The translations under genes were made by a program, and so were the position numbers. DNA of 64,000 nt, taken from contig CAVXPZ010000001.1 in NCBI GenBank assembly GCA_963763775.1, positions 128,001-192,000 on the forward strand, read 5' to 3'. The stretch is from an uncultured Chloroflexia bacterium. GTDB lineage: Bacteria; Chloroflexota; Limnocylindria; Limnocylindrales; CSP1-4. Below are positions 10,249 through 34,846 of this stretch, piece after piece; position 1 is the stretch's first letter, and the number at the start of each line of letters is the position of its first letter. The notes under the pieces are model-generated. The model was not told where the DNA came from. It saw nothing but the letters and a program-made list of their open reading frames with translations, and searched no databases.

Positions 10249-11985
10249 ATGACGGCCACGGCAGGCACCCGCGCCGCGAAGACGAAGAAGCGCTTTCCGA
10301 TCCTCGAGGGCGTCCTGCCGATCGACATGCCGCGCCTGCCGACCGAGGTCATCGCGGGGCTGACCCTGGCCGCGCTGGCGATGCCCGAGGTGATGGGCTA
10401 CGCCAAGATCGCCGAGATGCCCGTGGTCCTGGGCCTGTACACGCTGGTCCTGCCGCTGGCTGCCTTCGCGATCTTCGGCTCGTCCCGACACCTCGTGGTC
10501 GGAGCGGACTCGGCGACCGCCGCGGTCCTTGCGACCGGGCTGGCCGGGATCGCCGCCGCCGGAGCACCGGCATCCGCCAGCTGGGTGGCGATGGGGAGCC
10601 TGGCAGCACTCATGTGCGCGGTGTTCATGATCGTGGGCCGGGTCATCCGGCTCGGGTTCATCGCCAACTTCCTGTCGCATAGCGTCCTCATCGGCTTCCT
10701 GACCGGCGTCGGCATCCAGGTGGCGATGGGCCAGGTGGCCGGGATGTTCGGGGTGAGCGACGGCAGCGGTACCACGCTCGAGAAGTTCGGCAACACACTC
10801 AGGGCCATCGGCGCCGGCGACACGAGCGTCCCGACCCTCCTCGTGTCCATCGCGGTCCTCGTGACGATCGTCGGGCTGGAACGGGTGAACAAGAAGATCC
10901 CCGGTGCGCTCATCGCGGTGGTGGGGGCCATCGTCCTGAGCTACGCCTTCGATTTCGCTGCCCGAGGGATCACCACCGTCGGCACCGTCCCAGCCGGCCT
11001 GCCGCCGATCGGCCTGCCGGCCATCTCGGCGGACCAGCTGGTCAGCGACATGACGGCGCTCCTGCCGATCGTCGCCTCGATGTTCGTCCTGATCCTGGCC
11101 CAGAGTGCGGCGACGTCGCGCGCCTACGCCATGAAGTACGGCGACAGTTTCAACGAGAACGTCGATCTCATCGGCCTTGGGCTGGCCAACGCCGCGGCCG
11201 GTATCAGCGGCACGTTCGTCGTGAACGGCTCACCCACCAAGACCGAGATGGTCGACAACGCCGGCGGTCGGAGTCAGCTGGCGACGCTGACCACCGGTGT
11301 CGTCGTGGTGGTCGTGCTGCTCTTCCTCACCTACTGGCTGTCGTTCATGCCGAACGCCGTCCTCGCGGCGGTCGTCTTCCTGATCGGGATCAAACTCGTC
11401 GACTACCTTGGGATGCGCGGCATCTATGGGCTGCGCAGGGATGAGTTCGTCGTGGCGGCGATCACCGCAGCGGTCGTGGTCGTGGTCGGGGTGGAGCAGG
11501 GGATCATCCTCGCGATCATCCTCTCGCTGGTGCTCGTCCTGATGCATGTCTACAGGCCACATGACCACGTCCTGGCATTCAGTCCCGACAGCCAGCCCAC
11601 GATGTCCTCCGTGGCAAAGCCGATCCAGGCTGCCCCAGGACTGATCATCTACGACTTCGGCGCGGAGCTGTTCTACGCGAACGCCACGCGGTTCACCGAA
11701 GAGATCATGGACATCGTCGAGAGCGCCGACCCGCCGATCCGTTGGCTGGCCATCAACGCGGCCGCGATCGGCGACGTGGACTTCTCGGGCGCCGACTCCG
11801 TCCGCCAGATCCAGAACGAGCTCGTTCACCAGAATGCGGCGCTGGTGCTGTGTGCGGTCGATCCTGCTGTTCGCAAGCTGCTTGACGCCTACGGGCTGAC
11901 CGACACGATCGGCGCCGACCACATCTTCGAGCGGCCGATCGACGTGGTGGCGGCGTATTCGAAGCTGGCCCCGGCAGCGGGGTAG
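10249..11985 (+). CDS. SulP/SLC26 anion transporter with STAS domain
   Basis: AGLTLAALAMPEVMGYAKIA, GSSRHLVVGAD and C-terminal STAS (LFYANA, DFSG). Confidence 0.93.
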   Translation: MTATAGTRAAKTKKRFPILEGVLPIDMPRLPTEVIAGLTLAALAMPEVMGYAKIAEMPVVLGLYTLVLPLAAFAIFGSSRHLVVGADSATAAVLATGLAGIAAAGAPASASWVAMGSLAALMCAVFMIVGRVIRLGFIANFLSHSVLIGFLTGVGIQVAMGQVAGMFGVSDGSGTTLEKFGNTLRAIGAGDTSVPTLLVSIAVLVTIVGLERVNKKIPGALIAVVGAIVLSYAFDFAARGITTVGTVPAGLPPIGLPAISADQLVSDMTALLPIVASMFVLILAQSAATSRAYAMKYGDSFNENVDLIGLGLANAAAGISGTFVVNGSPTKTEMVDNAGGRSQLATLTTGVVVVVVLLFLTYWLSFMPNAVLAAVVFLIGIKLVDYLGMRGIYGLRRDEFVVAAITAAVVVVVGVEQGIILAIILSLVLVLMHVYRPHDHVLAFSPDSQPTMSSVAKPIQAAPGLIIYDFGAELFYANATRFTEEIMDIVESADPPIRWLAINAAAIGDVDFSGADSVRQIQNELVHQNAALVLCAVDPAVRKLLDAYGLTDTIGADHIFERPIDVVAAYSKLAPAAG

Positions 11986-14974: not shown

Positions 14975-15478
14975 TCAGGCGACCGGTGCGGGAGCCTCGG
15001 CCTCGGGGGTCGCCTCGGCCACGGCGGCCAGGGCCTCATCGGAGACGTCGTGGGCTTCCACGTCGCCACCGAGTTCGGTGAGCTTGCCGGCGACGGCGCC
15101 GGCTTCACCGGTCGGGACGAGGACGCCGACGGCCGCCTTGCCGCCGGTCAGTTCCGCACCGATCCGGGTGCTGTCCTCGTCGGTGAGGCCGAGTCCCTTG
15201 TGATGGAAGGCGCCGAGGATGCCGCCACCGACCACGCCGGCGAGCAAGGTCGGCGGGGCGACGACGGCCAGCACGAGGCCGATGCCGGCGCCCTTCTTGG
15301 TGCTCCGCTGGCCCATCTTGTGCGTCTTGAGCGATCCGTTGTCGTCGAGCACGAGGACGCCGATCGCGCCGAGCTTGACGTCATTGCTCGCCTGGTCCCA
15401 CGTCTTGAGGGCGTCGACCGCCGCGTCGGCGGCCGCCTCGTCCGCGAAGATCCCGAGGACCATCTGATTCTCAGCCAT
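14975..15478 (-). CDS. DUF1269-like glycine-zipper membrane protein
   Basis: GAGIGLVLAVV..GVVGGGILGA; GGGAGA RBS. Confidence 0.7.
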   Translation of the reverse strand: MAENQMVLGIFADEAAADAAVDALKTWDQASNDVKLGAIGVLVLDDNGSLKTHKMGQRSTKKGAGIGLVLAVVAPPTLLAGVVGGGILGAFHHKGLGLTDEDSTRIGAELTGGKAAVGVLVPTGEAGAVAGKLTELGGDVEAHDVSDEALAAVAEATPEAEAPAPVA

Positions 15479-16754: not shown

Positions 16755-16935
16755 TCCGACGCCGGGTGAGCCGGATACTCGTCCTATCGATCCCATGCGC
16801 AGATCGAAGGGCGCACGGCATCCGGGTCAGCCGTCGCCGCCGACGGGAACCCCGGCTCCTGCCGATGCCGCTTCGTCGAGACTGGCACCGGCGACGCGGT
16901 CCCGGGTCCAGACGACCAAGGAGGAGATCGCAGTC

Positions 16936-19341
16936 ATGCCCGTCGTCGATCGCAGTCACCTGCCCATCCGGCGCCCGTCGTTCGCGGGAGTCGTCAATCG
17001 GACGCTTGCTGGATCGCAGCCAGACTGGAACCTCATCGGGCACCCGTCGCCGCCCGACGGCGCGCCGAACGTCCTGCTCGTCCTGATCGACGACGCCGGC
17101 TTCGGGAACCCCAGCACCTTCGGCGGCCCGATCCAGACACCGAACTACACGCGGATGGCCGAGGGAGGCGTCCGGTACAACCGCTTCCATGTGACGGCGA
17201 TCTGCTCCCCCACACGGGCGGCGCTGCTCACGGGTCGCAACAGTCACGCGGTCGGCTTCGGGTCCGTGGGCGAGTTCGCGGGAGGCTACCCGGGCTATTC
17301 CGCCACCCTGCCCCGTGATTGCGCGCCGCTGCCGCGGATCCTGCGGGACAACGGCTACAACACGGCCGCGTTCGGCAAGTGGCATCTGACGCCTGACGGG
17401 CAGCAGGGACCAGGGGGACCGTTCGACCGGTGGCCGACGGGATGGGGCTTCGAGTACTTCTACGGCTTCCTCGGCGGTGGCGCCGGGCAGTGGGACACCG
17501 TCCTCGCCGAGAACCAGAAGATCATCGGGGTCGACCCCGCCTACGGCGACGAGGAGCACCCGTACTACCTGCCCGATGCCATGGCCGACAAGACCATCGA
17601 GTGGCTGCACGGGATCCGGGCACAGGACGCCAAGAAGCCGTTCTTCGCCTTCTTCTCGACCGGCTGTAGCCATGCCCCCCACCATGTCGCCGAGTCATGG
17701 GCGGCCAAGTACAAGGGCAAGTTCGATCAGGGCTGGGACCGCCTGCGTGAGGAGACGTTCGCCCGACAGCAGGCGCTCGGCGTGGTGCCCCCCGATGCGG
17801 AGCTGACGCCGCGCAACGAAGCGTTCCCGGCCTGGGACAGCGTTCCAGACCAGCTCAAGGCGTTCTACTCCCGCCAGATGGAGGTCTACGCCGGCTTCTC
17901 CGAGAACGCCGACCACAACGTCGGACGGGTGATCGATGCCATCGATGAGCTGGGCGAGCTCGACAACACCCTGGTCATCTGGATCTGGGGCGACAACGGC
18001 GCCAGCATGGAGGGCACCGTCACCGGCTCATTCAACGAGCTGACGATGCAGAACGGCATCCCCTTGACCGACGAGATGCAGCTCCAGCTGTCCGAGCGGT
18101 ATGGCGGCACGGACGCCTGGGGTGCCGAGATCATGGCACCGCACTACGGCGCGGCCTGGGCATGGGCCGGCAACACCCCCTTCCAGTGGGGCAAGCAGGT
18201 CGGCTCGCACCTGGGCGGGACCCGCAACCCGATGGTCATCCATTGGCCGGACAGCGTCCCCTCGGGTGGCGGGCTCAGAACGCAGTTCACCCACGTCATC
18301 GACATCGCGCCGACCATCCTCGACATCGCCGGGATCCCGGCGCCGACGACCGTCGACGGCATCGACCAGCGACCGCTCCACGGGGTCGCCTTCACGGACA
18401 GCCTGACGATGCCAGACGCGCCGGAGCGGCACACGCAGCAGTACTTCGAGTCGGTCGGCAACCGGTCCATGTACAAGGACGGTTGGTGGCTGTCCATGCG
18501 GACGGCGCGCATCCCGTGGGTCCTCACACCACAGGCGATCATGCCCTACGCGCCCGGCGTCTGGGATCCGGACAAGGACCCGACCGAGCTGTACTACCTG
18601 CCCGACGACTTCAGCCAGGCGCACGACCTGGCGGCCGAGCGCCCAGAGAAGGTGGCTGAGCTCAGGGAGCTGTTCTGGCAGGAGGCCGAGCAGTACCAGG
18701 TGCTCCCGCTCCTGGCCACCCTCTCGTCGTTCTTCGGTCAGCTGCCCCCGATGCCCGAGACCACCAAGCTCGAGTTCCGGGGCGATGTCCAGAACGTGCT
18801 GTCGGGCATGATCCCGCGCGTCTACAACCACTCCTACACGATCAGCGCGGACCTCGTCGTCCCCGCGGACGGCGTCGAGGGCGTGATCGTCGCCGAGGCC
18901 GACCACCTCGGCGGGTTCTCACTCTTCGTCCAGGACGGGAAGCTGACGCACACCTACTCGATGATGGGCGTCTTCATCTTCCGCCAGCAGGCCACCGAGC
19001 CGCTGCCGACAGGTGACGTCAACGTGCGGATGGAGTTCGCGGCCGACGCGCCAAAGCCGGCGACCGGCGGCCAGGTGACCCTCTACGTCAATGACCAGGA
19101 GGTCGGCGGAGGTCGGATGGACCACACCGTCCCGATGCGCTTCTCCGGCTACGCCGGCATGGACATCGGCCGCGACAACGGTGGCGTGGTGGACCGGAGC
19201 TACGCCGCGAAGGCGCCGTTCCCCTTCACGGGCACCGTCAAGAAGGTCGTCTTCGACATCAAGCCACACCTCGATCACGAGGAGGCCGAGTTGCACGAGG
19301 CCACGAAGAACGCCGACGTCGCCCACGCGCTGAGCGCCTGA
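16936..19341 (+). CDS. Arylsulfatase, Cys-type, cytoplasmic, with C-terminal LamG-like domain
   Basis: PNVLLVLIDD, CSPTRAALLTGRN, FGKWHL, HAPHH and GDNGAS; no signal peptide; AAGGAGG RBS. Confidence 0.95.
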   Translation: MPVVDRSHLPIRRPSFAGVVNRTLAGSQPDWNLIGHPSPPDGAPNVLLVLIDDAGFGNPSTFGGPIQTPNYTRMAEGGVRYNRFHVTAICSPTRAALLTGRNSHAVGFGSVGEFAGGYPGYSATLPRDCAPLPRILRDNGYNTAAFGKWHLTPDGQQGPGGPFDRWPTGWGFEYFYGFLGGGAGQWDTVLAENQKIIGVDPAYGDEEHPYYLPDAMADKTIEWLHGIRAQDAKKPFFAFFSTGCSHAPHHVAESWAAKYKGKFDQGWDRLREETFARQQALGVVPPDAELTPRNEAFPAWDSVPDQLKAFYSRQMEVYAGFSENADHNVGRVIDAIDELGELDNTLVIWIWGDNGASMEGTVTGSFNELTMQNGIPLTDEMQLQLSERYGGTDAWGAEIMAPHYGAAWAWAGNTPFQWGKQVGSHLGGTRNPMVIHWPDSVPSGGGLRTQFTHVIDIAPTILDIAGIPAPTTVDGIDQRPLHGVAFTDSLTMPDAPERHTQQYFESVGNRSMYKDGWWLSMRTARIPWVLTPQAIMPYAPGVWDPDKDPTELYYLPDDFSQAHDLAAERPEKVAELRELFWQEAEQYQVLPLLATLSSFFGQLPPMPETTKLEFRGDVQNVLSGMIPRVYNHSYTISADLVVPADGVEGVIVAEADHLGGFSLFVQDGKLTHTYSMMGVFIFRQQATEPLPTGDVNVRMEFAADAPKPATGGQVTLYVNDQEVGGGRMDHTVPMRFSGYAGMDIGRDNGGVVDRSYAAKAPFPFTGTVKKVVFDIKPHLDHEEAELHEATKNADVAHALSA

Positions 19342-19367
19342 TCCGAATCACCAGTGGAGACAGTGGC

Positions 19368-19874
19368 ATGAGCAAGGAAGAGACCATCGACGTCCTGATG
19401 GCCGGGTACCTCTCGAAGGACGCGGCGCAGGATGACTTCGACGCGGTCAACGCGTCAGGCGCGGACCTGATCGGTCTGGTCATCCTCGACAAGGACCTCG
19501 AAGGCACCGTTTCGATCGATGTCGAGGACCACGCGGTCCGCACGGGCGCGAAGAAGCTCGGAGGCGTCGGCTTCATCGTCGGCCTGTTCGCGCCACCGCT
19601 CCTCGCCGCGACGGCAGCCGGCGCCGTGATCGGAGCCGGGGTCGGCAAGGTCGCGCATCGCAAGATCGAGGCCGGGATCAAAGCGTCGGCTGAGGGGTCG
19701 ATCCCGATCGGCGGCGCCGCGCTCATCGCGGTGTACCACCCCGGCTCGTCCGCGGCCATCGAGGCGGCCGTCACACGGGCGATCAAGCGCAGCAACGGCG
19801 AGGCCACCGGCCCGCACAAGACCGCGTTGAAGGCGGCGATGGCGGACGCCCAGGCGAAGATGAACGCCGGGTGA
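19368..19874 (+). CDS. DUF1269-like glycine-zipper membrane protein
   Basis: GGVGFIVGLFAPPLLAATAAGAVIGAGVG. Confidence 0.75.
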   Translation: MSKEETIDVLMAGYLSKDAAQDDFDAVNASGADLIGLVILDKDLEGTVSIDVEDHAVRTGAKKLGGVGFIVGLFAPPLLAATAAGAVIGAGVGKVAHRKIEAGIKASAEGSIPIGGAALIAVYHPGSSAAIEAAVTRAIKRSNGEATGPHKTALKAAMADAQAKMNAG

Positions 19875-20660: not shown

Positions 20661-21532
20661 CCAAGGATCAGGCGGACCGGGGCCCTGTGGTCATCACGGG
20701 CACGTCCACGGGCATCGGCGCTGCGACCGCGTTGCACCTTGCGGAGAACGGCTTCCGCGTGTTCGCCGGCGTTCGTCGGGCGGCCGACGGAGCGGCACTG
20801 AAGTCGCGCACCAAGGGTGAGCTCACCGTCCTGCTGTTCGACATCACCGACGCCGCGGCGATCGCGCGCGCGGTCGAGTCGGTGACGGTCGCCGTCGGCG
20901 AGCGAGGCCTGGCCGGTCTCGTCAACAACGCCGGCATCGTCAAGCCGGGACCGCTCGAGTTCCAGTCGCTGGCCGACTTCCGGGAGCAGCTGGAGGTCAA
21001 CCTCGTCGGCCAGCTGGCCGTGACCCAGGCGTTCCTGCCGTTGATCCGGTTGGGACGTGGGCGGATCGTCAACGTCGGGTCGATCGGCGGACGCCTGGTC
21101 CTGCCCATCCACGGCGCCTACCACGCGTCCAAGTTCGGCATCGAGGCGCTCAGTGACGCCCTGCGCCTCGAGTTGCGTCAGTGGCGCATCCCCGTGTCGC
21201 TCGTGGACCCTGGTGCGACCGAGACCGCCATCTTCGGCAAGACGCTCGCGGCACTCGATTCCGTGCTGACGTCACTCGACGAGGACGACCGGCACGAGTA
21301 CGACGCGCAGCTGGCGGCGATCCGCCGAACGGTCGAGAAGACGGCCGCCGACGCGGCCCCGGCGGTCGATCTGGCGAAGGCCATCGCCGAAGCCCTGACG
21401 GCCGACAAGCCGAAGGCCCGCTACCTGGCGGGCAAGGGAGCCAAAGCGGCTGCGGCACTGGCTCGGACGCCGTCGGACCGCGTCAAGGATCTGGCAATCG
21501 CCAGGGACGTCGGGCTGCCTGACCCGGAGTAG
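20657..21532 (+). CDS. Short-chain dehydrogenase/reductase
   Basis: TGTSTGIG, NNAG and YHASK. Confidence 0.93.
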   Translation: MTKDQADRGPVVITGTSTGIGAATALHLAENGFRVFAGVRRAADGAALKSRTKGELTVLLFDITDAAAIARAVESVTVAVGERGLAGLVNNAGIVKPGPLEFQSLADFREQLEVNLVGQLAVTQAFLPLIRLGRGRIVNVGSIGGRLVLPIHGAYHASKFGIEALSDALRLELRQWRIPVSLVDPGATETAIFGKTLAALDSVLTSLDEDDRHEYDAQLAAIRRTVEKTAADAAPAVDLAKAIAEALTADKPKARYLAGKGAKAAAALARTPSDRVKDLAIARDVGLPDPE

Positions 21533-21640
21533 TCACCGAGCGCGCACTGATGTCGATCCCCACGGCGAGCGGGAGGATCTGACCGATGACCTGTTGCACG
21601 ATGGTTCTCCCTTGACGAGACCGGCGTGAACGTCCGTCGG

Positions 21641-22005
21641 CTACGTCTCACCTTCGCGCGAACTCGGTCGTTCTCCATCCCGTCGTCGACGTCGTAGCCC
21701 ATGGCCAGGGCCAGCTTGGGCGCAGCGGACATCACGAGTGCAGAACCCGCGATGCGTGCGATGACGACCAGGACGTCCGTGATCTGCTCCGGCGATGCGC
21801 CAGCGGAGATCGCGGCGGTCACCTCGCACTGGTAGGCAGGCGCGTCCGCATCCACGGCGATGAGGACGGCAAGCCGGACAAGTGCCGCAGTCCGATCGTC
21901 GAGCACATCCGACGTGCGATCGGCCGTCGAGAACAAGGTGGTCATCAGCGAGACGTCGCCGAGGGTCAGCCTCCGGTAGAGCGCGGCCTGCGACGGCGAC
22001 AGCAT
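21641..22005 (-). CDS. Carboxymuconolactone decarboxylase/AhpD-like protein (3' end uncertain)
   Basis: LDDRTAALVRLAVLIAVDA..AISAGASPEQI. Confidence 0.7.
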
Positions 22006-22077
22006 TCCGGCACTCCTGACTTGCAGATGCACGTCTGCGACGCGCCGGTCAAGTGAACGTTCGCCGGAGACGAGGCG

Positions 22078-22098: not shown

Positions 22099-22126
22099 TC
22101 CTGCACATCGGCCGTCCGTCGACGGC

Positions 22127-23113
22127 TCAGTCGTCGACCTCCACCCAGATCGCCTGCTCGTCGTGATGTTCCCAGTCGGCACCCGGCATCGCGATCGACC
22201 AGCGCGTCCACGTCCCGACGGGCCGAGCCGGTGCCGTCCGGACCCGGGCACGGACGACCATGCCGGGCGCCAGCTCCACCGGCGAACGCAGCGGAGCCGT
22301 GGTCATCCCCCAATGCGTCTCGGGATCGCCGGGACCGTCGGAGAGCGAGATGCCGGGCGCGAGCTCGGCGCTGAACCAGAGTGCGAGCGCGTTAGCCGTC
22401 CCGTGGTCGTGGATCGAGAGCGCCACCTCGGTTTCGAATGGCGAGCTCGCCTCGTCGAGCGGGATGTCGTGCGCGTCGGTCGTCCACAGCCGCCCCGGCG
22501 ACGAGCGAGTATCGCCCGTCGCAAGGTGGCGAAAGGTGCCCGCGTAGGAGATCTCGTTCACCGTCTTCTCGATCAGGTCCTCGAAGTCGAGGCCATACGG
22601 GTTGGTCCGCAGGAACTCGACCGTGTCTTCGAGATAGCGGTCATGCACCAGCGCGGTCCACGCCGTGACCGAGCCGGGGATCATGATCCCGCCGGGCTTG
22701 AGCCATCGGTCACGGGCCGCGATGACCGGGACGAGCATCCCTTCGTCGATCCCGAAGCCCCCGAGCCACTCGGAGACGATCACATCCACCCGCCCCGGCG
22801 GCTCGATGTCCAGGACGTCTCCCTGGATCACCTCGATGACGTCGGAGAGTCGGTTTGCCGCGACGAGCTCCTGAGCCAGGACCGCGATGGATGTCTGCTC
22901 GACCGCATAGACGCGGGCGGCACCCGCCCGGGCCGCGAACATGCTCAGGACACCGCTACCTGCTCCGACGTCGAGGACGATGTCGCCCGGGCGCACGACC
23001 GCCTCGATCGCCCGCTTGAAGGCCTCCGTGCGGACCTCGTCGCGGATCATCGTCCGATGGACCTCGAACTCCGCATACATCGGGTCCGGCGAGATCCTGA
23101 TCGGCGTCCGCAT
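22127..23113 (-). CDS. Protein arginine N-methyltransferase-like (PRMT1-type) SAM-dependent methyltransferase
   Basis: H..M..DEVRT, VLDVGAGSG, double-E loop SEWLG..DEGM, ARDRWLKPGG and THW loop; TATAGT -10 six nt before ATG (leaderless). Confidence 0.85.
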   Translation of the reverse strand: MRTPIRISPDPMYAEFEVHRTMIRDEVRTEAFKRAIEAVVRPGDIVLDVGAGSGVLSMFAARAGAARVYAVEQTSIAVLAQELVAANRLSDVIEVIQGDVLDIEPPGRVDVIVSEWLGGFGIDEGMLVPVIAARDRWLKPGGIMIPGSVTAWTALVHDRYLEDTVEFLRTNPYGLDFEDLIEKTVNEISYAGTFRHLATGDTRSSPGRLWTTDAHDIPLDEASSPFETEVALSIHDHGTANALALWFSAELAPGISLSDGPGDPETHWGMTTAPLRSPVELAPGMVVRARVRTAPARPVGTWTRWSIAMPGADWEHHDEQAIWVEVDD

Positions 23114-23191
23114 CTGACGACTATAGGGAGTACGCCGGCGCCGCACGCCCTCGGACGGCACGGTCGCCGTCATCGACCGGCACCCACCGAG

Positions 23192-23212
23192 TTTCAGCCC
23201 TTCGGGGTGATG
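23192..23212 (+). promoter_or_regulatory. Island operator copy 5
   Basis: TTTCAGCC-CTTCG-GGGTGATG; GATGAT at 23233. Confidence 0.6.
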
Positions 23213-23269
23213 CCGGGCCTCTGGAAGGCCGGGATGATCACCGAAAGCCCACAGGCTAAGGAGATCTCC

Positions 23270-23564
23270 ATGGGAATGAGACGACGAACACGACGCCGTG
23301 CGCTCGTGGCCGGAGCAGCGGTCGCGCACCATCGCAGCAACATGGCTGCGGAGCAGCAGCAGGCCGGCTATGACCAGGGAGCGTCCGACGCCCAGCAAGC
23401 GGCTCCCGCGCCGCAGTATCAAGCGCCCGCGGCGCCAGTCGCTCGCCGCGCCCCCCCCGCCGGACCCCTACGACCAGATCGAGCATCTCGCCCAGCTCCA
23501 TGCCTCGGGTGCCTTGACCGACCAGGAGTTCGCGGCCGAGAAGGCGAAGGTCCTCGGGTCGTGA
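23270..23564 (+). CDS. SHOCT-domain protein with Arg-rich N-terminus (frameshift near the C run at about 23450)
   Basis: TAAGGAG RBS; MGMRRRTRRRA; LAQLHASGALTDQEFAAEKAKVL. Confidence 0.8.
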
Positions 23565-23624
23565 GCGCGACATGTGACGCCAGCGACTTCGGCCCGATCT
23601 TCACGATGGGAGCGGAGGCCCACA

Positions 23625-24041
23625 ATGACTAGATCGCGCAAGGACACCCTCGCCAGGGCGCTCGAGGCGGAGGTCGGTGGCGAGACGGTTGATCCCGCGA
23701 CGCTGTTCACCGACGATGTCGTCGGCTGGTCGCCGTACGCGTCTGTCTCCGGATTGAAGGCGCTCAGTGCGTTGGAGGTCATCCACCAGCTCGCGTTCTC
23801 CAACGTGGTGATCCTGTTCCGGGGACTCGATGAAGTCGGCAACAAGGCGTTCGCCGAATGGGTCATCGAAGCCGATCACACCGGACCACTCGTCCTCGGC
23901 GAGGACGCCGTCGTGGAGGCGACGGGGCGGCACATCCAGCTGGCGGGCGCCACCGTGGCCGACTTCCGCGACGGCAAGATCCGGTCGTTCCGGACGTACT
24001 TCGACGACATCTCGCTCATCGAGCAGGTCGTCGGCGCCTGA
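23625..24041 (+). CDS. SnoaL/NTF2-like protein
   Basis: AEW....HTGP and FRDGKIRSFRTYFD. Confidence 0.8.
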   Translation: MTRSRKDTLARALEAEVGGETVDPATLFTDDVVGWSPYASVSGLKALSALEVIHQLAFSNVVILFRGLDEVGNKAFAEWVIEADHTGPLVLGEDAVVEATGRHIQLAGATVADFRDGKIRSFRTYFDDISLIEQVVGA

Positions 24042-24055
24042 CCACGACGCAAGCG

Positions 24056-24478
24056 ATGGAATTCCACGTCGAGCGCGACCCTGATCCGCTCGACGTGGGG
24101 TTCCTTGAGATGCAGATCCGCCGTGAGGCCAGTCTCGCCATGCGCCTCGGCGACGAGGTCGAACTGGCGATCTTCGTGCGAGTCGGCGACAGGATCGTCG
24201 CCGGCATCAGCGGCTGGACCTGGGGCGATTGCTGCGAGTTGTCGAGCCTCTGGGTCGACTCGAGTCTGAAAGGTCGATGGCTCGCGCCCAGGCTGATCGC
24301 TGCCGCCGAAGCCGAAGCGGTCGCTCGCGGATGTACGCAGACCATCCACTTCTCGTACGGGTTCCAGGCTCGGCGCCTCTACGAACGGGCCGGATACGAA
24401 GTCGTCGGGCGCGTCGAGGACTTTCCGGCAGGGACGGACGCCTTCTGGTTTCGCAAGCGTCTTCGCCACGGCCCATGA
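24056..24478 (+). CDS. GNAT N-acetyltransferase
   Basis: LWVD...GR..L...AE.EA..RGC and FQARRLYERAGY. Confidence 0.85.
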   Translation: MEFHVERDPDPLDVGFLEMQIRREASLAMRLGDEVELAIFVRVGDRIVAGISGWTWGDCCELSSLWVDSSLKGRWLAPRLIAAAEAEAVARGCTQTIHFSYGFQARRLYERAGYEVVGRVEDFPAGTDAFWFRKRLRHGP

Positions 24479-24572
24479 AACGGACCGCCTGGCTTCATCG
24501 GCAGATCGCGTAGCCTCGCCGACGCCAGGACGGCCACGAGGGGTCGTCAGCGGGTCGGCGCCGTGTCTATGC

Positions 24573-26885
24573 TTGGGCGATGGCGACACGGATCGGGGGG
24601 GAGGACGATCGAGCGGCCGCGAACGCCACTGGCGCGAGCGCCGGCCCTCAGCTCCAAGTTCGCGCTTGCCGGCCGCGCCGGCGGCGGTGATGCCCCGCCC
24701 CAGGCTCACCGACCTCCTCGTGGCGGCCGATGGCCCCGCCGTCGTGTCGATCGTGGCCCCAGCCGGCTATGGCAAGACCACGCTGCTCCGCCAGTGGGCC
24801 GACCACCTGTCGAACGTCGGGTATGTCGCCCTCGACGTCAGCGACAACGACCCCGTCGTGCTGATCTCGGCGATCGCGACCGCCCTCGATCGAGTGGAGC
24901 CGCTCGATCCGGCCTTGCTGCGGCTGCTCGGGTCGCCCGGGCGATCCCTCGAATTGACGCTCCTACCGGGACTCGTGGAAGCGATCTGGGCACGGCACAC
25001 GCCCACGGTGTTGATGCTCGATGACGCGCATCAGCTCGACCAGGCTGTGGCACTCGACGTCGTGGCCTTCCTCATGCTCCGCTTGCCCACGACCCTGCGA
25101 CTGGTATTCACCGCGCGTCGGATGCTGCCACTCCCCTACGCACGCCTCCGCCCTACCGGTCACTTGCTGGAGCTGGGTCCACGCGAACTGGCATTGGACG
25201 AGGCGGACGCGCAGGCGCTGGCGACCGCGATCGGTGTCCGGGTCCCGCCAAGCCAGCTCGCCGGCCTTCTGGCGAGGACCGAGGGATGGCCGGCGGCCAC
25301 CTATCTTGGTCTCCGCCTGGCGGGATCTGCCCGCTCACAGGACAACGGGGCCGATGGACTGACGGGGACGGAGGCGTCCATCGCGGACTACATGCAGTCG
25401 GAACTGCTCGAGCCGCTGGACGCCGGAACGCGGACGTGGTTGCGCCGAACATCGGTGCTGGACGCCATGAGCGGACCGCTCTGCGACGCCACACTCGGCA
25501 CGACAGGTTCGATGACGGTGCTGCGGCGCCTGGAGCGAGACAACCTCTTCGTGGTGGCGCTCGATGCGAATTGCGGTTCGTACCGCTACCACCGGCTCTT
25601 CCGCGACCTCCTCCGCGACGAGCTCGACGAGCATGAATCTGGCGCGGCCGTCGAGCTGTGTACGCGCGCGGCCGCCTGGTGCGCCGAACACGGGGAGCGG
25701 GAGCGCGCGGTCGAATACGCCCTCGCCTCTGGTGACATGGACCTCGTCGCGCGGTTCGTTCTCGCGTACACCTTCCCCCTGCACTGGTCGGGCCGCATCG
25801 CGACCGTCGGACGGTGGCTCGACTTGTTCGACCGCGACGGAGAGCGGGAGCGCCGCGCCGCCCTGGCAGTGTTCGCGGGCTGGGTCCACGCGATGGAAGG
25901 ACGGACGCGAGAGGCGAGACGGTGGCTCACGAGCGCGGAGCTCTCGGCCGATGTCAGCCCGATGCCGGACGGAGCAACCAAGGCGTCGTGGGTCGCGGTG
26001 CTCCGCGGGTACATGGCCCCGGATGGACTGGACACGCTCGCGTCGGATGCGCGCACCGCGCTCGCCGGGATCCCGGACGAGAGCCCATTTCGTCAGGGTG
26101 CATTGATCCTCGGGGGGTTCGCCGCGATCGCCGCTCGCACACCGCTGGCAGCCGACGTGCTGTTCGCCGAGGCTGTCGCGGTGGCCGAGGCCCGGCGTGC
26201 GATCCCTGGCATCTCACTCGCGCTCGGCGAGCGTGCGCTCCTCGCGCTCGGCCGTGGCGATGTCGCGGCCGCGACCAGGCATGTCGAGTCGGGCCTCGCG
26301 GTCGTTCATGAGGCGGGGATGGACGAGTTCGTCGCGAGCATGACCCTCCATGCCGCCGCGGCCAGGGTCGCGCTGGCGAACGGCTCCCCGTCGGAGGCAC
26401 GCCTGGCGATCGCCCGTGTGAACCGGATGCGACCGATCGCGACCGCTGCCCTCCCGATTCCCGCCCTGCAGATGCGCTTCGAGACGATCCGTGCCTGCAT
26501 CGTGCTCAACGAGGCCTCGGCGGCGAGGACGCTGCTGCTGGAGGTCAGGGACATCCTTCGCCAGTGCCCGGATCTGGGAGCGTTGGTCGACGAGGCCGTC
26601 GAGTTGGAGCGAGCGGTGGGATCCCTTCGCGCGACGTCTGCCGGGCCGTGGGCCTTGACGACGGCGGAGCTGCGGTTGCTCGCCTACCTGCCGACGCATC
26701 TCACATTCCGCGAGATCGCCGCCCGGCTCTTCGTCTCGACGCACACCGTCAAGACCCAGGCCATGGCGATCTACGGCAAGCTGGGCGTGTCGTCGCGCCG
26801 TGGCGCTATCGAGCAGGCCGTCCAGGCCGGCCTTCTGGATGCGGCCGTCATCAGGATGCCCGGGATCCCGGAAGGGATCGGCTGA
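24573..26885 (+). CDS. MalT-like ATP-dependent LuxR-family transcriptional regulator
   Basis: APAGYGKTT, LMLDDAH, RTEGWPA, YRYHRLF and C-terminal LuxR HTH. Confidence 0.93.
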   Translation: MGDGDTDRGGGRSSGRERHWRERRPSAPSSRLPAAPAAVMPRPRLTDLLVAADGPAVVSIVAPAGYGKTTLLRQWADHLSNVGYVALDVSDNDPVVLISAIATALDRVEPLDPALLRLLGSPGRSLELTLLPGLVEAIWARHTPTVLMLDDAHQLDQAVALDVVAFLMLRLPTTLRLVFTARRMLPLPYARLRPTGHLLELGPRELALDEADAQALATAIGVRVPPSQLAGLLARTEGWPAATYLGLRLAGSARSQDNGADGLTGTEASIADYMQSELLEPLDAGTRTWLRRTSVLDAMSGPLCDATLGTTGSMTVLRRLERDNLFVVALDANCGSYRYHRLFRDLLRDELDEHESGAAVELCTRAAAWCAEHGERERAVEYALASGDMDLVARFVLAYTFPLHWSGRIATVGRWLDLFDRDGERERRAALAVFAGWVHAMEGRTREARRWLTSAELSADVSPMPDGATKASWVAVLRGYMAPDGLDTLASDARTALAGIPDESPFRQGALILGGFAAIAARTPLAADVLFAEAVAVAEARRAIPGISLALGERALLALGRGDVAAATRHVESGLAVVHEAGMDEFVASMTLHAAAARVALANGSPSEARLAIARVNRMRPIATAALPIPALQMRFETIRACIVLNEASAARTLLLEVRDILRQCPDLGALVDEAVELERAVGSLRATSAGPWALTTAELRLLAYLPTHLTFREIAARLFVSTHTVKTQAMAIYGKLGVSSRRGAIEQAVQAGLLDAAVIRMPGIPEGIG

Positions 26886-26931
26886 GCGTCCAGCGCTCAT
26901 GCAGATACACCCAGGGAGTATTGACAAGGTC

Positions 26932-26960
26932 TTGACAAACGGGCCATCGAGGCGCATCAT
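26932..26960 (+). promoter_or_regulatory. Sigma70 promoter of dnaG-rpoD
   Basis: TTGACA(26932)-N17-CATCAT(26955). Confidence 0.6.
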
Positions 26961-26971
26961 CCCCATCGATA

Positions 26972-26996
26972 GGGCTTGTCAAGACTTGACAGGCCC
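26972..26996. promoter_or_regulatory. 25-bp inverted repeat GGGCTTGTCAAGACTTGACAGGCCC
   Basis: Near-perfect palindrome just downstream of the predicted transcription start. Confidence 0.55.
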
Positions 26997-27049
26997 ACAG
27001 TCATGTCCGGGTCCTTGGCGGGAAGCCGGGCGAGCGCAGGAGGCGCCAT

Positions 27050-28964
27050 TTGGCGGTCGGCGTCGCAGCCGAAGTCAAGAGCAAGCTGTCGGTCGTCGAG
27101 GTCGTCGGCGAGACCGTGTCGCTCAAGAAGGCGGGCACCAGCTACAAGGGCCTGTGCCCGTTCCACGGTGAGAAGACACCGTCGTTCGTGGTCACCCCGG
27201 CCCGGGAGTCCTGGCACTGCTTCGGCTGTGGGCTGGGCGGGGACATCTTCAGTTTCGTCATGCAGCGCGACGGCGTCGCGTTCCCGGAGGCCCTCCGGAC
27301 GCTGGCGCAGCGGGCCGGCGTCGAGATCGACGAGCGCACCAAGCGCGAGGACGCGCACAAGGCCCGGCTCCGCCAGGTCCTCGACCACGCCATCGCCTTC
27401 TACCACGCGGTCCTGACCGGCTCGAAGACCGGCGGCGCATGCCCTGACCTATCTGCACGAGCGCGGGTTCACCGACGAGACCATCGAGACCCACCAGCTC
27501 GGCTGGGCGCCCGGCGGCTGGGACACGATGACCCGGATGCTCGCGAACAAGCGCGACGTCCGGCCCGAGGAGCTCGTCGAGGTGGGGCTCGCATCGCCGC
27601 GGACCAACGGCCGTGGCGGTGTCTACGACAAGTTCCGCGCGCGCGTCCTGTTCCCGATCCGGGACCAGAACGGCAACGCGGTCGGGCTCGGCGGGCGGCT
27701 CCTGGAGGGCGAGGGTCCCAAGTACCTCAACACGGCCGCGACCGTGCTCTTCGACAAGAGCCGGACGCTCTATCTCATCGACAAGGCCAAAGGCCCGATC
27801 CGCCGCTCGAAGCAGGCGGTCATCGTCGAGGGCTACACCGACGCCCTGATGGCGCACCAGGCCGGCTTCGACAACGTCGTCGCGAGCCTCGGGACCGCGC
27901 TCACGCCCGGCCAGGTGGCGCTCCTGACGCGTTACGCCGAACGGATCGTCCTCGCGTACGACGTCGACTCGGCGGGGGAGAAGGCCGGCACGCTCGGCGT
28001 CACCGCGCTGGCCGGGCTGATCGGGCAGCTCCAGGCCGACGACTCGGGCGTGAAGCTCGAGGACGTGCGGGTCGCCCGGCTGCCCGACGGCAAGGATCCC
28101 GACGAGGTCGTCCGCGAGTCGCCGGACGCCTGGTCGGCCGCGATCGCGGCCGCCAAGCCACTCGTGGAGTACCTCATCGGTCACCACGCGGCGCGGTTCG
28201 ACCTCAAGACCTCGTCCGGGCGCATCGGCTTCGTGGAGGCGGTGATGCCGTCGATCCGCGACATCGCGGACCCGCTCCGTCGCGACGAGGCGCTCCAGGA
28301 GGTCCGCCAGGTCTCTGGCGTGGAGGAACGCGTGCTCCGACAGGTGCTGGAACGCCGGCTGGCCGCGGCGGGACCCGGCCGCGCCGGCGACTCGCAGGGC
28401 CGGATCACGGCGGACTCGGTGCTCGCCTCGCCCGACGCGCTCCCGATCCACGACATCCTGCGCGCGATCACGCCGGTCGAGTCCGAGCTCCTGCGCTTGC
28501 TGCTCCTGGTCCCCGACCTGCAACTGCGGGTCGTGGACGAGCTGGGGCCGGACCAGCTGCCGTCGACGGTGGCCCGCGAGCTGTTCCGGGCGATCGTGCT
28601 CCAGCGGGCGCCGGACGACCACGGCGTCCACCCGCCGTTCGACGGGGCGGCGCTGCTGCTCGCCCTCGACGACGAAACGGCGGCGCTCGCTCGAGCGTTG
28701 TATGCGAAGGCGGGGCCGGATCCCCGCACGCTCGATGCGCATCAACTCGAGTACGAGGTCTCCCGGCTGCTCCTGGAGCTGGAGGACGACCAGCTGCGCG
28801 AGCGCAGCGACTACAACGAGGCCGCCCAGGGGGAGGCCGAACGGGCCGGCGACGCCGAGGCGATCGACCGACTGATGAACGAACGACGACAGATCAACGA
28901 AGCGCGCCGGTCGCTCGACCGACGTCGAGACCAGACCCGGCTGCTGACCAGCCCTCGGAGGTGA
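27050..28964 (+). CDS. dnaG: DNA primase (frameshift near 27435)
   Basis: CPFHGEKTPSF zinc finger, PKYLN and TOPRIM VEGYTD/YDVDSAG/KDPD. Confidence 0.95.
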
Positions 28965-34771: not shown

Positions 34772-34846
34772 TCCGGCGTAGCTCAGTGGTAGAGCGGGCG
34801 GCTGTTAACCGCTTGGTCGTAGGTTCGAGTCCTACCGCCGGAGCCA
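34772..34846 (+). tRNA. tRNA-Asn (GTT)
   Basis: Acceptor TCCGGCG/CGCCGGA, D arm TAGCTCAGTGGTAGAGC, anticodon loop CTGTTAA, GGTTCGAGTCC and encoded CCA. Confidence 0.97.

Follow-up and report, generated by a model that had tools for sequence, protein, structure and literature searches.

A type I PRMT-fold methyltransferase gene in a conserved four-gene module of uncultured soil bacteria

We analyzed a 64,000-nucleotide stretch of the genome of an uncultured Chloroflexia bacterium (GenBank assembly GCA_963763775.1, contig CAVXPZ010000001.1, positions 128,001 to 192,000; hereafter the window, with a G+C content of about 70%, its genome being labeled G000) and found that the gene at 22127–23113 on the reverse strand encodes an S-adenosylmethionine (SAM)-dependent methyltransferase of 328 amino acids with the type I protein arginine methyltransferase (PRMT) fold. 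Matches to solved structures in the PDB, a PRMT_C domain, the predicted model and its Foldseek neighbors, invariant residues, and the ratio of nonsynonymous to synonymous divergence (dN/dS) lead us to regard the enzyme as intact, constrained, and, judged by its residues, catalytically complete. The gene is a member of a widespread and mislabeled bacterial radiation, not an isolated eukaryote-like oddity. The real unit comprises four genes, the PRMT gene and a trio encoding a small SHOCT-domain protein, a SnoaL-like protein, and a GNAT-family N-acetyltransferase. The fixed four-gene module is new here, as is its spread across phyla among uncultured soil bacteria; a literature search that covered papers without their supplementary files found none on the four-gene combination and none on a characterized bacterial PRMT of the window type. 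The family is uncharacterized.

Proteins carrying methylated arginine have been reported from bacteria. The literature treats bacterial PRMT homologues mostly in the context of peptide natural products, and annotation routinely mislabels them as PrmA. According to parts of a preprint on Mycobacterium smegmatis (bioRxiv 10.1101/2021.10.06.463415), no PRMT has been characterized in mycobacteria and physiological roles have barely been studied. The family found here offers a simple test case, with an enzyme that appears catalytically complete by its residues and carries no extra domains, a fixed set of three partner genes, a candidate substrate of about 90 residues in the SHOCT protein, and occurrences of the trio without the enzyme that may serve as natural "controls." The module thereby gives a concrete way to learn what PRMT-like enzymes do in bacteria.

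The enzyme and its relatives

The open reading frame (ORF) starts with MRTPIRISP and gives 328 amino acids; translation from an in-frame ATG upstream, at 23173, would lengthen the product to 348. Since most homologues have 328 or 317 amino acids, 22127–23113 is the likely extent of the gene. A sequence-only reading of the window had described a full-length eukaryote-like PRMT, and all the motifs it named were mapped to residues of the 328-amino acid ORF, with their order kept. The N-terminal helix motif YAEFEVHRTMIRDEVRT occupies residues 13–29 and aligns in phmmer with YAHFGIHEEMLKDEVRT of PRMT8; motif I, VLDVGAGSG, lies at residues 46–54, also aligned to PRMT8, with E72 as the post-I acidic residue; and the double-E loop SEWLGGFGIDEGM spans residues 114–126, its E115 and E124 spaced as in SEWMGYCLFYESM of PRMT8. 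Further motifs are ARDRWL (133–138), YGLDF (173–177), and THW (266–268), the last aligned to the THW of PRMT8.

Using phmmer against the PDB, query residues ~32–313 of the 348-amino acid form matched PRMT8, PRMT6, PRMT2, and PRMT1 at E values of 1e-39 to 7e-37. PRMT3 and CARM1 followed at 1e-27 to 1e-33 and PRMT7 and PRMT9 at 1e-15 to 1e-19, and the best 60 of the 77 chains at E ≤ 0.001 were PRMTs without exception. Such agreement is much too close to be accidental. Identity to the eukaryotic type I enzymes was 26–32%, with PRMT8, 6, 2, and 1 about equidistant (130–140 bits). The Pfam family PRMT_C (PF22528) matched residues 172–316 of the 348-amino acid form with 36.5 bits (cut-off 27). With an alignment of 101 rows as input, AlphaFold2 gave a model with a predicted local distance difference test score (pLDDT) of 93.3 and a predicted template-modeling score (pTM) of 0.91. 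The Foldseek search proposed earlier as a check, run with this model against the PDB, placed PRMT6, PRMT2, and PRMT3 on top, with TM scores of 0.80–0.89 over 318–335 columns. The claim of a full-length PRMT was thus borne out: the two-domain fold and the catalytic motifs are complete, and the matches to type I PRMTs are full-length. The supposed "arm remnant" needed correction, as the dimerization arm is full-length; the alignment to PRMT8 is gap-free through the N-terminal helix, motif I, double-E loop, motif III, and dimerization arm, and the model has the arm helices at 159–169 and 178–185 and the β-barrel strands at 207–318.

Conservation among the relatives was consistent with a constrained enzyme. 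Y13, H19, M22, D25, R28, motif I, E72, E115, E124, M126, and T266-H267-W268 were invariant in 29 of 29 close relatives. Motif I and E72 were kept in at least 61 of 72 distant relatives, and the two glutamates of the double-E loop in 69 and 61 of them. Against eight relatives, the dN/dS of the gene was 0.18–0.28. A role in anti-phage defense was also considered and rejected: the sole PADLOC match of the enzyme was to mad2 of the MADS system (4.3e-22) and covered the Rossmann part only (residues 38–213), while the SnoaL-like, GNAT, and SHOCT proteins matched no PADLOC defense model.

The enzyme resembles the eukaryotic type I PRMTs (PRMT1/8, PRMT6, PRMT2, PRMT3, and CARM1) in its N-terminal helix, Rossmann domain, arm, and β-barrel, and in motif I, the post-I Glu, the double-E loop, the THW loop, and both Met residues. 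It differs from them in lacking an N-terminal targeting domain (SH3, zinc finger, or PH). The setting with SHOCT, SnoaL-like, and GNAT genes has no eukaryotic counterpart, and, unlike the eukaryotic enzymes, the window family is bacterial, patchy, and horizontally spread, and known here from sequence and model.

The sequence-only reading had predicted that automated annotation would call the gene PrmA-like, and indeed a homologue with 76% identity appears in NCBI as "50S ribosomal protein L11 methyltransferase"; JGI names for close homologues vary and include "type I protein arginine methyltransferase." Taken at face value, the NCBI name and a Pfam PrmA match of 46.9 bits (cut-off 22; E value 3.4e-12) would make the enzyme the L11 lysine methyltransferase PrmA, or else a generic SAM-dependent methyltransferase. 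The Pfam match is limited, however, to the Rossmann core (profile positions 153–235 of 296), the best 60 PDB chains are all PRMTs, the NCBIfam prmA model TIGR00406 scored 40.1 bits against a cut-off of 183.15 over profile positions 153–235 only, and a full-length true prmA is found elsewhere in the genome (G000:C4:491405-492295; 187.8 bits, profile positions 1–288). We consider this explanation extremely improbable, and the TIGR00406 score far below the cut-off and the separate true prmA rule out the PrmA identity at the sequence level. The likeness between the two consists in the class I Rossmann SAM-binding core, which is the source of the automatic name, and the window enzyme lacks the N-terminal L11-binding part of PrmA.

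A scan of 1.84 billion representative proteins found 13,922 at E ≤ 1e-3 and 1,057 at E ≤ 1e-30. The best 150 representatives all scored at least 161 bits, whereas the top eukaryotic PRMT of solved structure reached 139.7 bits. In the ESM Atlas, the order of which we take as leads only, bacterial clusters came first and eukaryotic type I PRMT clusters after them. The nearest clusters were from Myxococcota, Actinomycetota, Acidobacteriota, and Pseudomonadota, combined PrmA and PRMT_C matches, and carried the automatic name "putative 50S ribosomal protein L11 methyltransferase." A separate cluster look-up for second-tier relatives (40–49% identity) returned the name "SAM-dependent methyltransferase" or none. 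The earlier view that PRMTs are mainly eukaryotic understates a large bacterial radiation, visible in the 1,057 representatives, in the Atlas, and in passages of PMC3417536, which describe bacterial PRMT homologues identified by comparative genomics and report relatives in secondary-metabolite operons. The PRMT-fold enzymes of peptide natural-product clusters (Aravind et al., as cited in those passages) belong to the same radiation. The window family keeps every arginine-binding residue and lacks the fused RiPP (ribosomally synthesized and post-translationally modified peptide) recognition element or the borosin-binding tail, and it is paired with a SHOCT protein, whereas the enzymes of the natural-product clusters are paired with a RiPP precursor and maturation enzymes. 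At locus L007, a 33%-identical homologue is flanked by an asparagine-synthase-like gene, a small ORF, and a transporter-like gene, a setting like that of a lasso-peptide cluster.

The four-gene module and its spread

A word-index search gave 2,172 matches among 8,000 scored candidates, the best 120 of which were all 70–90% identical to the window PRMT. Surveying one genome per species, we found 190 stretches encoding a relative and examined the best 80 loci (73–88% identity), all of them from metagenome-assembled genomes (MAGs) of uncultured soil bacteria. By their record labels, 71 loci are from Actinomycetota (29 Actinomycetes, 28 Thermoleophilia, 8 Acidimicrobiia, and 6 without class), 8 from Chloroflexia, and 1, on a 2.5-kb contig, from Gemmatimonadales.

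Searching these loci by tblastn with the neighbors of the window gene recovered the SHOCT gene in 79 of 80 and the SnoaL-like (138 amino acids) and GNAT (140 amino acids) genes in 76 each. The order SHOCT, SnoaL, GNAT on one strand is constant, and the complete trio lies beside the PRMT gene in 75 loci. The position of the enzyme gene varies: the trio is divergent from it, as in the window, in 54 loci; precedes it in the same direction in 14; follows it in the same direction in 4; and is convergent with it in 3. In three of the five loci lacking the full trio, a contig end cuts it off (L024, L042, and L067); the other two are genuine exceptions, L026 having only SHOCT and L071 lacking SnoaL. 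Six more distant actinobacterial PRMT-like loci (29–33% identity) had no trio partner in any case. Some genomes hold two PRMT copies (L019/L026, L040/L063, L041/L082, and L053), and in L053 (6022–7005 and 9370–10353) two complete modules of differing arrangement lie 3 kb apart.

In the window, all three partner genes lie on the forward strand. The SHOCT gene (23270–23564) encodes the N-terminus MGMRRRTRRRALVAGAAVAHH from 23270 onward, the domain being assigned on the copy at L011 (Pfam SHOCT, 9.3e-8). The SnoaL/NTF2-like protein (23625–24041; Pfam SnoaL_2, 8.8e-10; model pLDDT 91.6) had no match in the PDB by sequence. The GNAT protein (24056–24478; Pfam Acetyltransf_1, 2.3e-10) matched three PDB chains by sequence, 1y9w and 2g3a (both "acetyltransferase") and 2pdo ("ypeA"), none with a described function, and was weakly similar to RimI-type N-terminal acetyltransferases, at an E value of 0.0027 and far below the cut-off.

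The trio also occurs without the methyltransferase. We searched for the SnoaL-like protein in 400 other Actinomycetota genomes and in G436; the tally of 11 includes the unpublished G528, which carries no claim. Four genomes had a close copy (79–80% identity), each with SHOCT and GNAT genes adjoining. G436 has the trio and the PRMT gene. In G548 the trio contig ends inside a PRMT copy (residues 1–122), and a second, full-length copy elsewhere contains an in-frame TAG; G596 retains a PRMT remnant, residues 238–298 only, and G716 has the trio and no PRMT gene. The SHOCT proteins of G596 and G716 retain MGMRRRSRRR. Distant SnoaL-like genes (35–44% identity) likewise stand beside SHOCT genes without a PRMT gene, and the SHOCT and SnoaL-like genes therefore look like an older and wider pair than the module. 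Examples of such pairs are found at L032:7078-7782, L048:10198-11014, L105, L106, L110, and L111, and their SHOCT proteins also start basic (e.g., MGLMFRRRRP). The genome of L048, G438, contains three full-length rpoB matches on three contigs, which suggests a mixed or duplicated bin and calls for care with its label.

Of 24 other genomes in the genus of the window genome, one contained the PRMT gene; of 16 from a second family of its order, none did. At the DNA level, a search of 30 congeners located 22125–26891, comprising the module and a LuxR-type regulator gene, only in G010, and 26904–27999 in nearly all. Another 400 genomes from the window's phylum yielded three PRMT matches, all 29–33% identical and none close; 400 other genomes from the phylum of a Solirubrobacteraceae-labeled genome gave one close match, that with the in-frame TAG, and eight distant ones. 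Compared with four Actinomycetota-labeled genomes, the window genome showed 76–77% identity in the PRMT, 71–75% in EF-Tu, and 52–58% in RpoB; the corresponding nonsynonymous divergence (dN) was 0.14 for the PRMT gene, 0.19–0.23 for tuf, and 0.30–0.34 for rpoB.

A quick maximum likelihood tree of 82 rows was shallow, with classes interleaved. On this tree, which is unrooted and carries the submitters' class labels, the well-supported branches can be reconciled with the labels only by at least 6 changes for Actinomycetes, 5 for Thermoleophilia, and 3 for Acidimicrobiia. The window, eight Chloroflexia rows, and three Acidimicrobiia rows form one group inside the Actinomycetota rows, with a Shimodaira–Hasegawa-like approximate likelihood ratio test (SH-aLRT) value of 94. 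Horizontal transfer is the best explanation for this distribution, since an accessory gene present in fewer than 1 in 100 species is nonetheless less diverged across phyla than EF-Tu.

We rejected synonymous divergence (dS) as a clock for the transfer: the apparent dS of tuf and rpoB (0.45–0.69) is the same as that of the module genes, and with third positions at 97–100% G+C it is uninformative about age. The genome has two full-length EF-Tu genes (G000:C1:37344-38537 and G000:C1:20717-21907), and the G+C content at third codon positions was 1.0 in the copy examined, versus 0.88 in the PRMT gene and 0.80 in the GNAT gene. Plasmid sequences gave only two distant matches (35–42% identity) and no close copy, and phage sequences gave no PRMT match.

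The SHOCT protein and the function of the module

Intact SHOCT relatives are 80–103 amino acids long and consist of the start MG[FM]RRR[TV]RRR[AG]L[VIL]AGA, an acidic linker rich in Gln, Pro, and Ala, and the SHOCT domain at the C-terminus. The Arg cluster is present in all 71 intact copies, an invariance that is partly by construction because the Arg pattern was the filter for selecting them. Copies picked by the SHOCT motif alone have the same Arg-rich N-terminus in nearly all module-linked cases. The PRMT is acidic (50 Asp and Glu versus 27 Lys and Arg, pI 4.7, net charge about –23), which is compatible with a basic SHOCT target though not specific to it.

In the window itself, the divergent protein starting MGMRRRTRRR that the sequence-only reading had pointed out does begin at 23270, but the frame of its SHOCT domain is broken. 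One extra base at about 23445–23458, not seen in the alignment with the four closest loci (L010, L011, L012, and L014), parts the N-terminus from the SHOCT-domain frame (23298–23564). The break could mean that the module is decaying in this genome, the SHOCT gene being truly frameshifted and the local system nonfunctional although the PRMT gene is intact. Besides the four close loci, a public-run contig of a relative (16 other letters in 178) has one base less at 23445, and the PRMT gene has decayed elsewhere, as in the remnant of G596 and the in-frame TAG of G548. The linker that holds the break is, however, C-rich and of low complexity, and a run of eight C adjoins the site, a typical setting for an assembly indel; similar breaks in the linker occur in the MAG loci L016, L041, L062, and L101 (1131–1432); the recurrent breaks may thus be assembly indels in homopolymer runs. 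The public runs hold at most 0.15 of the stretch, and the single contig spanning the site is that of the relative, with no same-strain read across the break in the runs searched. The PRMT, SnoaL, and GNAT genes are intact in the window, and we regard decay as possible but doubtful.

The spacer that separates the divergent PRMT and SHOCT genes (23114–23269, 156 bp) contains an AAGGAG ribosome-binding site before the SHOCT start. The "island operator" previously placed there was not supported: sequence scans found no inverted repeat and no promoter-like or terminator-like site in the spacer, and 49 aligned spacers (78–607 bp) have no conserved block and nothing in common except the ribosome-binding and start regions. 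No Rfam match between 21000 and 25000 came near its gathering score, the one listed, mir-2320, having an E value of 0.64 and 22.5 bits versus 90. An operator or RNA element in the spacer was therefore rejected. Overall, the earlier observation held for the ORF, its motifs, and the SHOCT start and failed for the operator and the arm remnant.

We tentatively favor the reading, which we rate as somewhat short of probable, that the enzyme is a guanidino-N-methyltransferase whose target is encoded in the module, the polybasic SHOCT N-terminus being the most likely one. The reading builds on the observed fold, catalytic motifs, gene linkage, and distribution. Given the chemistry of the family, the enzyme would move a methyl group from SAM to a guanidino nitrogen of arginine. 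In type I PRMTs, two Met residues flanking the active site are said to set asymmetric dimethylation; since both are kept here, monomethylarginine and asymmetric dimethylarginine would be the probable products. The gene context points to the module's own protein as the target, the best candidate being the hexa-arginine SHOCT N-terminus, where the cluster MG[FM]RRR[TV]RRR precedes a short hydrophobic stretch. That the trio can stand alone, while the PRMT gene is almost never found without the trio, fits a PRMT modifying a product of the trio. More speculatively, the GNAT protein could be a second modifier of the SHOCT protein, acting, for example, on the N-terminal Gly after Met removal or on a conserved Lys of the SHOCT domain. 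The module is best seen as an accessory unit spread by horizontal transfer among the Actinomycetota of soil and into Chloroflexota. Of the earlier proposal of an arginine-methylation system with local substrates, the enzyme family was upheld, and so was the tie to the SHOCT gene, conserved in 79 of 80 loci and across four arrangements; the SHOCT N-terminus as the substrate is still a conjecture.

A bolder version of the same idea would have PRMT and GNAT jointly modify the Gly-plus-hexa-arginine motif of the SHOCT protein, making the module a mobile writer that switches charge-driven binding to membrane, nucleic acid, or the NTF2-like partner. We consider this unlikely. If true, the joint writing would be a bacterial counterpart of eukaryotic polybasic and N-terminal-acyl switches and give the first dedicated writer–substrate pair for bacterial arginine methylation. 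Under the favored reading, with the SHOCT N-terminus as the substrate, the two proteins would form a minimal writer–substrate pair on which to study the specificity of PRMTs and how the eukaryotic enzymes arose. A predicted complex of PRMT, SAM, and SHOCT (with the L010 row first) scored 0.02 against a mark of 0.32 and speaks neither for nor against binding.

Several observations weigh against methylation of the SHOCT protein within a transferred module. The SHOCT frame is broken in the window. Arg-rich N-termini are found in SHOCT paralogues without a PRMT gene (L032, L048, and L105), which argues that the basic N-terminus has a role of its own, and methylation would be dispensable for a trio that survives without the enzyme. 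The sequence RRRTRRR differs from the RGG/GAR motif favored by PRMT1. The best PDB neighbors of the SnoaL-like model are polyketide cyclases, hydroxylases, and epoxide hydrolases (14–25% identity), and a SnoaL fold of this small-molecule type, as predicted, together with a GNAT enzyme would fit a small-molecule pathway as well. No integrase was seen, nor a close plasmid or phage copy that would point to a vehicle of transfer. The best 80 loci, finally, are all MAGs, and the family is known from its sequences.

The main and serious rival is a small-molecule substrate. The PRMT-fold enzyme would methylate the guanidino group of arginine in free form or of a metabolite derived from it, the GNAT and SnoaL-like proteins would act on the same molecule, and the SHOCT protein would be accessory or regulatory. 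The parts consulted of PMC11705231 describe SznE/StzE of streptozotocin synthesis as acting on L-arginine, and those of PMC5572114 describe BlsL of the blasticidin S pathway as PRMT-like at a low identity of 35%; both systems share with the window enzyme a bacterial, SAM-dependent methylation of guanidino nitrogen, which for the latter is presumed. The three enzyme-like genes of the module are tightly packed, the SnoaL-like model resembles small-molecule cyclases and hydrolases, and PRMT relatives in secondary-metabolite operons (passages of PMC3417536) and at the lasso-peptide-like cluster of L007 add to the case. On the other side, the best-kept partner, with 79 of 80 loci, is a small nonenzymatic protein, and the PRMT peptide-binding architecture of β-barrel, arm, and THW loop appears wholly retained in the model. 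ORF clustering around the 80 loci found no recurrent nonribosomal peptide synthetase, polyketide synthase, oxygenase, or transporter, and, going by the descriptions, SznE/StzE and BlsL sit in recognized biosynthetic clusters and the window gene does not. We judge this alternative to be a real possibility but on the doubtful side; if correct, it would reveal a guanidine-modifying pathway that is new and widespread among the uncultured Actinomycetota of soils.

The enzyme might also be a general protein arginine methyltransferase, modifying several cellular proteins (e.g., ribosomal, nucleoid, or division proteins) and linked to the trio by co-regulation or co-transfer only. Eukaryotic type I PRMTs have many substrates, and the window enzyme carries no extra targeting domain. 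The M. smegmatis preprint, in the parts cited above, adds arginine-methylated proteins in actinobacteria and no known writer in mycobacteria. A pleiotropic writer would not be expected to hold one block of neighbors through four arrangements and 75 of 80 loci, nor to be as rare and patchy as this family, and we consider this role decidedly unlikely. A module-encoded target, with the SHOCT N-terminus as the first candidate, is the reading that we tentatively retain.

Neighboring genes

Downstream of the trio, a gene at 24573–26885 on the forward strand encodes a LuxR/MalT-type STAND regulator of 770 amino acids (Pfam and tblastn). It is probably outside the core module, because it is a close neighbor (67–86% identity) only in five Chloroflexia-labeled loci. 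Antisense inside it, at 25388–25543 on the reverse strand, lies the only ORF of 51 amino acids seen nearby, starting with MSRSRRRS; it is possibly the "51-aa peptide" listed earlier among candidate substrates, and nothing marks it as a gene. Downstream of the PRMT gene, a carboxymuconolactone-decarboxylase (AhpD-like) family gene (21421–22017, reverse strand) is a neighbor only in the closest loci.

A sulfatase (848 amino acids) and a DUF1269 protein (168 amino acids, Pfam), encoded at 16795–19874 on the forward strand, recur near the module at varied distance and orientation. By tblastn, the sulfatase was found in 29 and DUF1269 in 19 of the 80 loci; the pair occurs near the module, for example, in L011, L020, L029, L030, L044, L045, and L053, as well as in L062, L073, L075, L077, L081, L086, L087, and others. 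In an all-against-all clustering of the ORFs of the 80 loci, nothing beyond the four module genes was found in more than about 26 loci, the sulfatase being next. Further clusters contained an ORF of 465 amino acids in 22 loci, which we take to be DUF2252, and one of 555 amino acids in 12, presumably SulP; DUF1269 also formed a cluster. Annotation of the flanks by greedy choice of the longest ORF is unreliable at a G+C content of 70% and served for passing remarks only.

By eye, an ORF resembling SulP-type sulfate permeases (10249–11985, forward strand) and a second DUF1269-like ORF (14975–15478, reverse strand) lie to the left of the sulfatase. A tRNA-Asn (GTT) at 34772–34846 on the forward strand is the window's sole tRNA or Rfam match; the right edge (~26900) of the variable region lies about 8 kb to its left. 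The sulfatase/DUF1269 pair is also present in the congeners G005 and G017, both of which lack the module.

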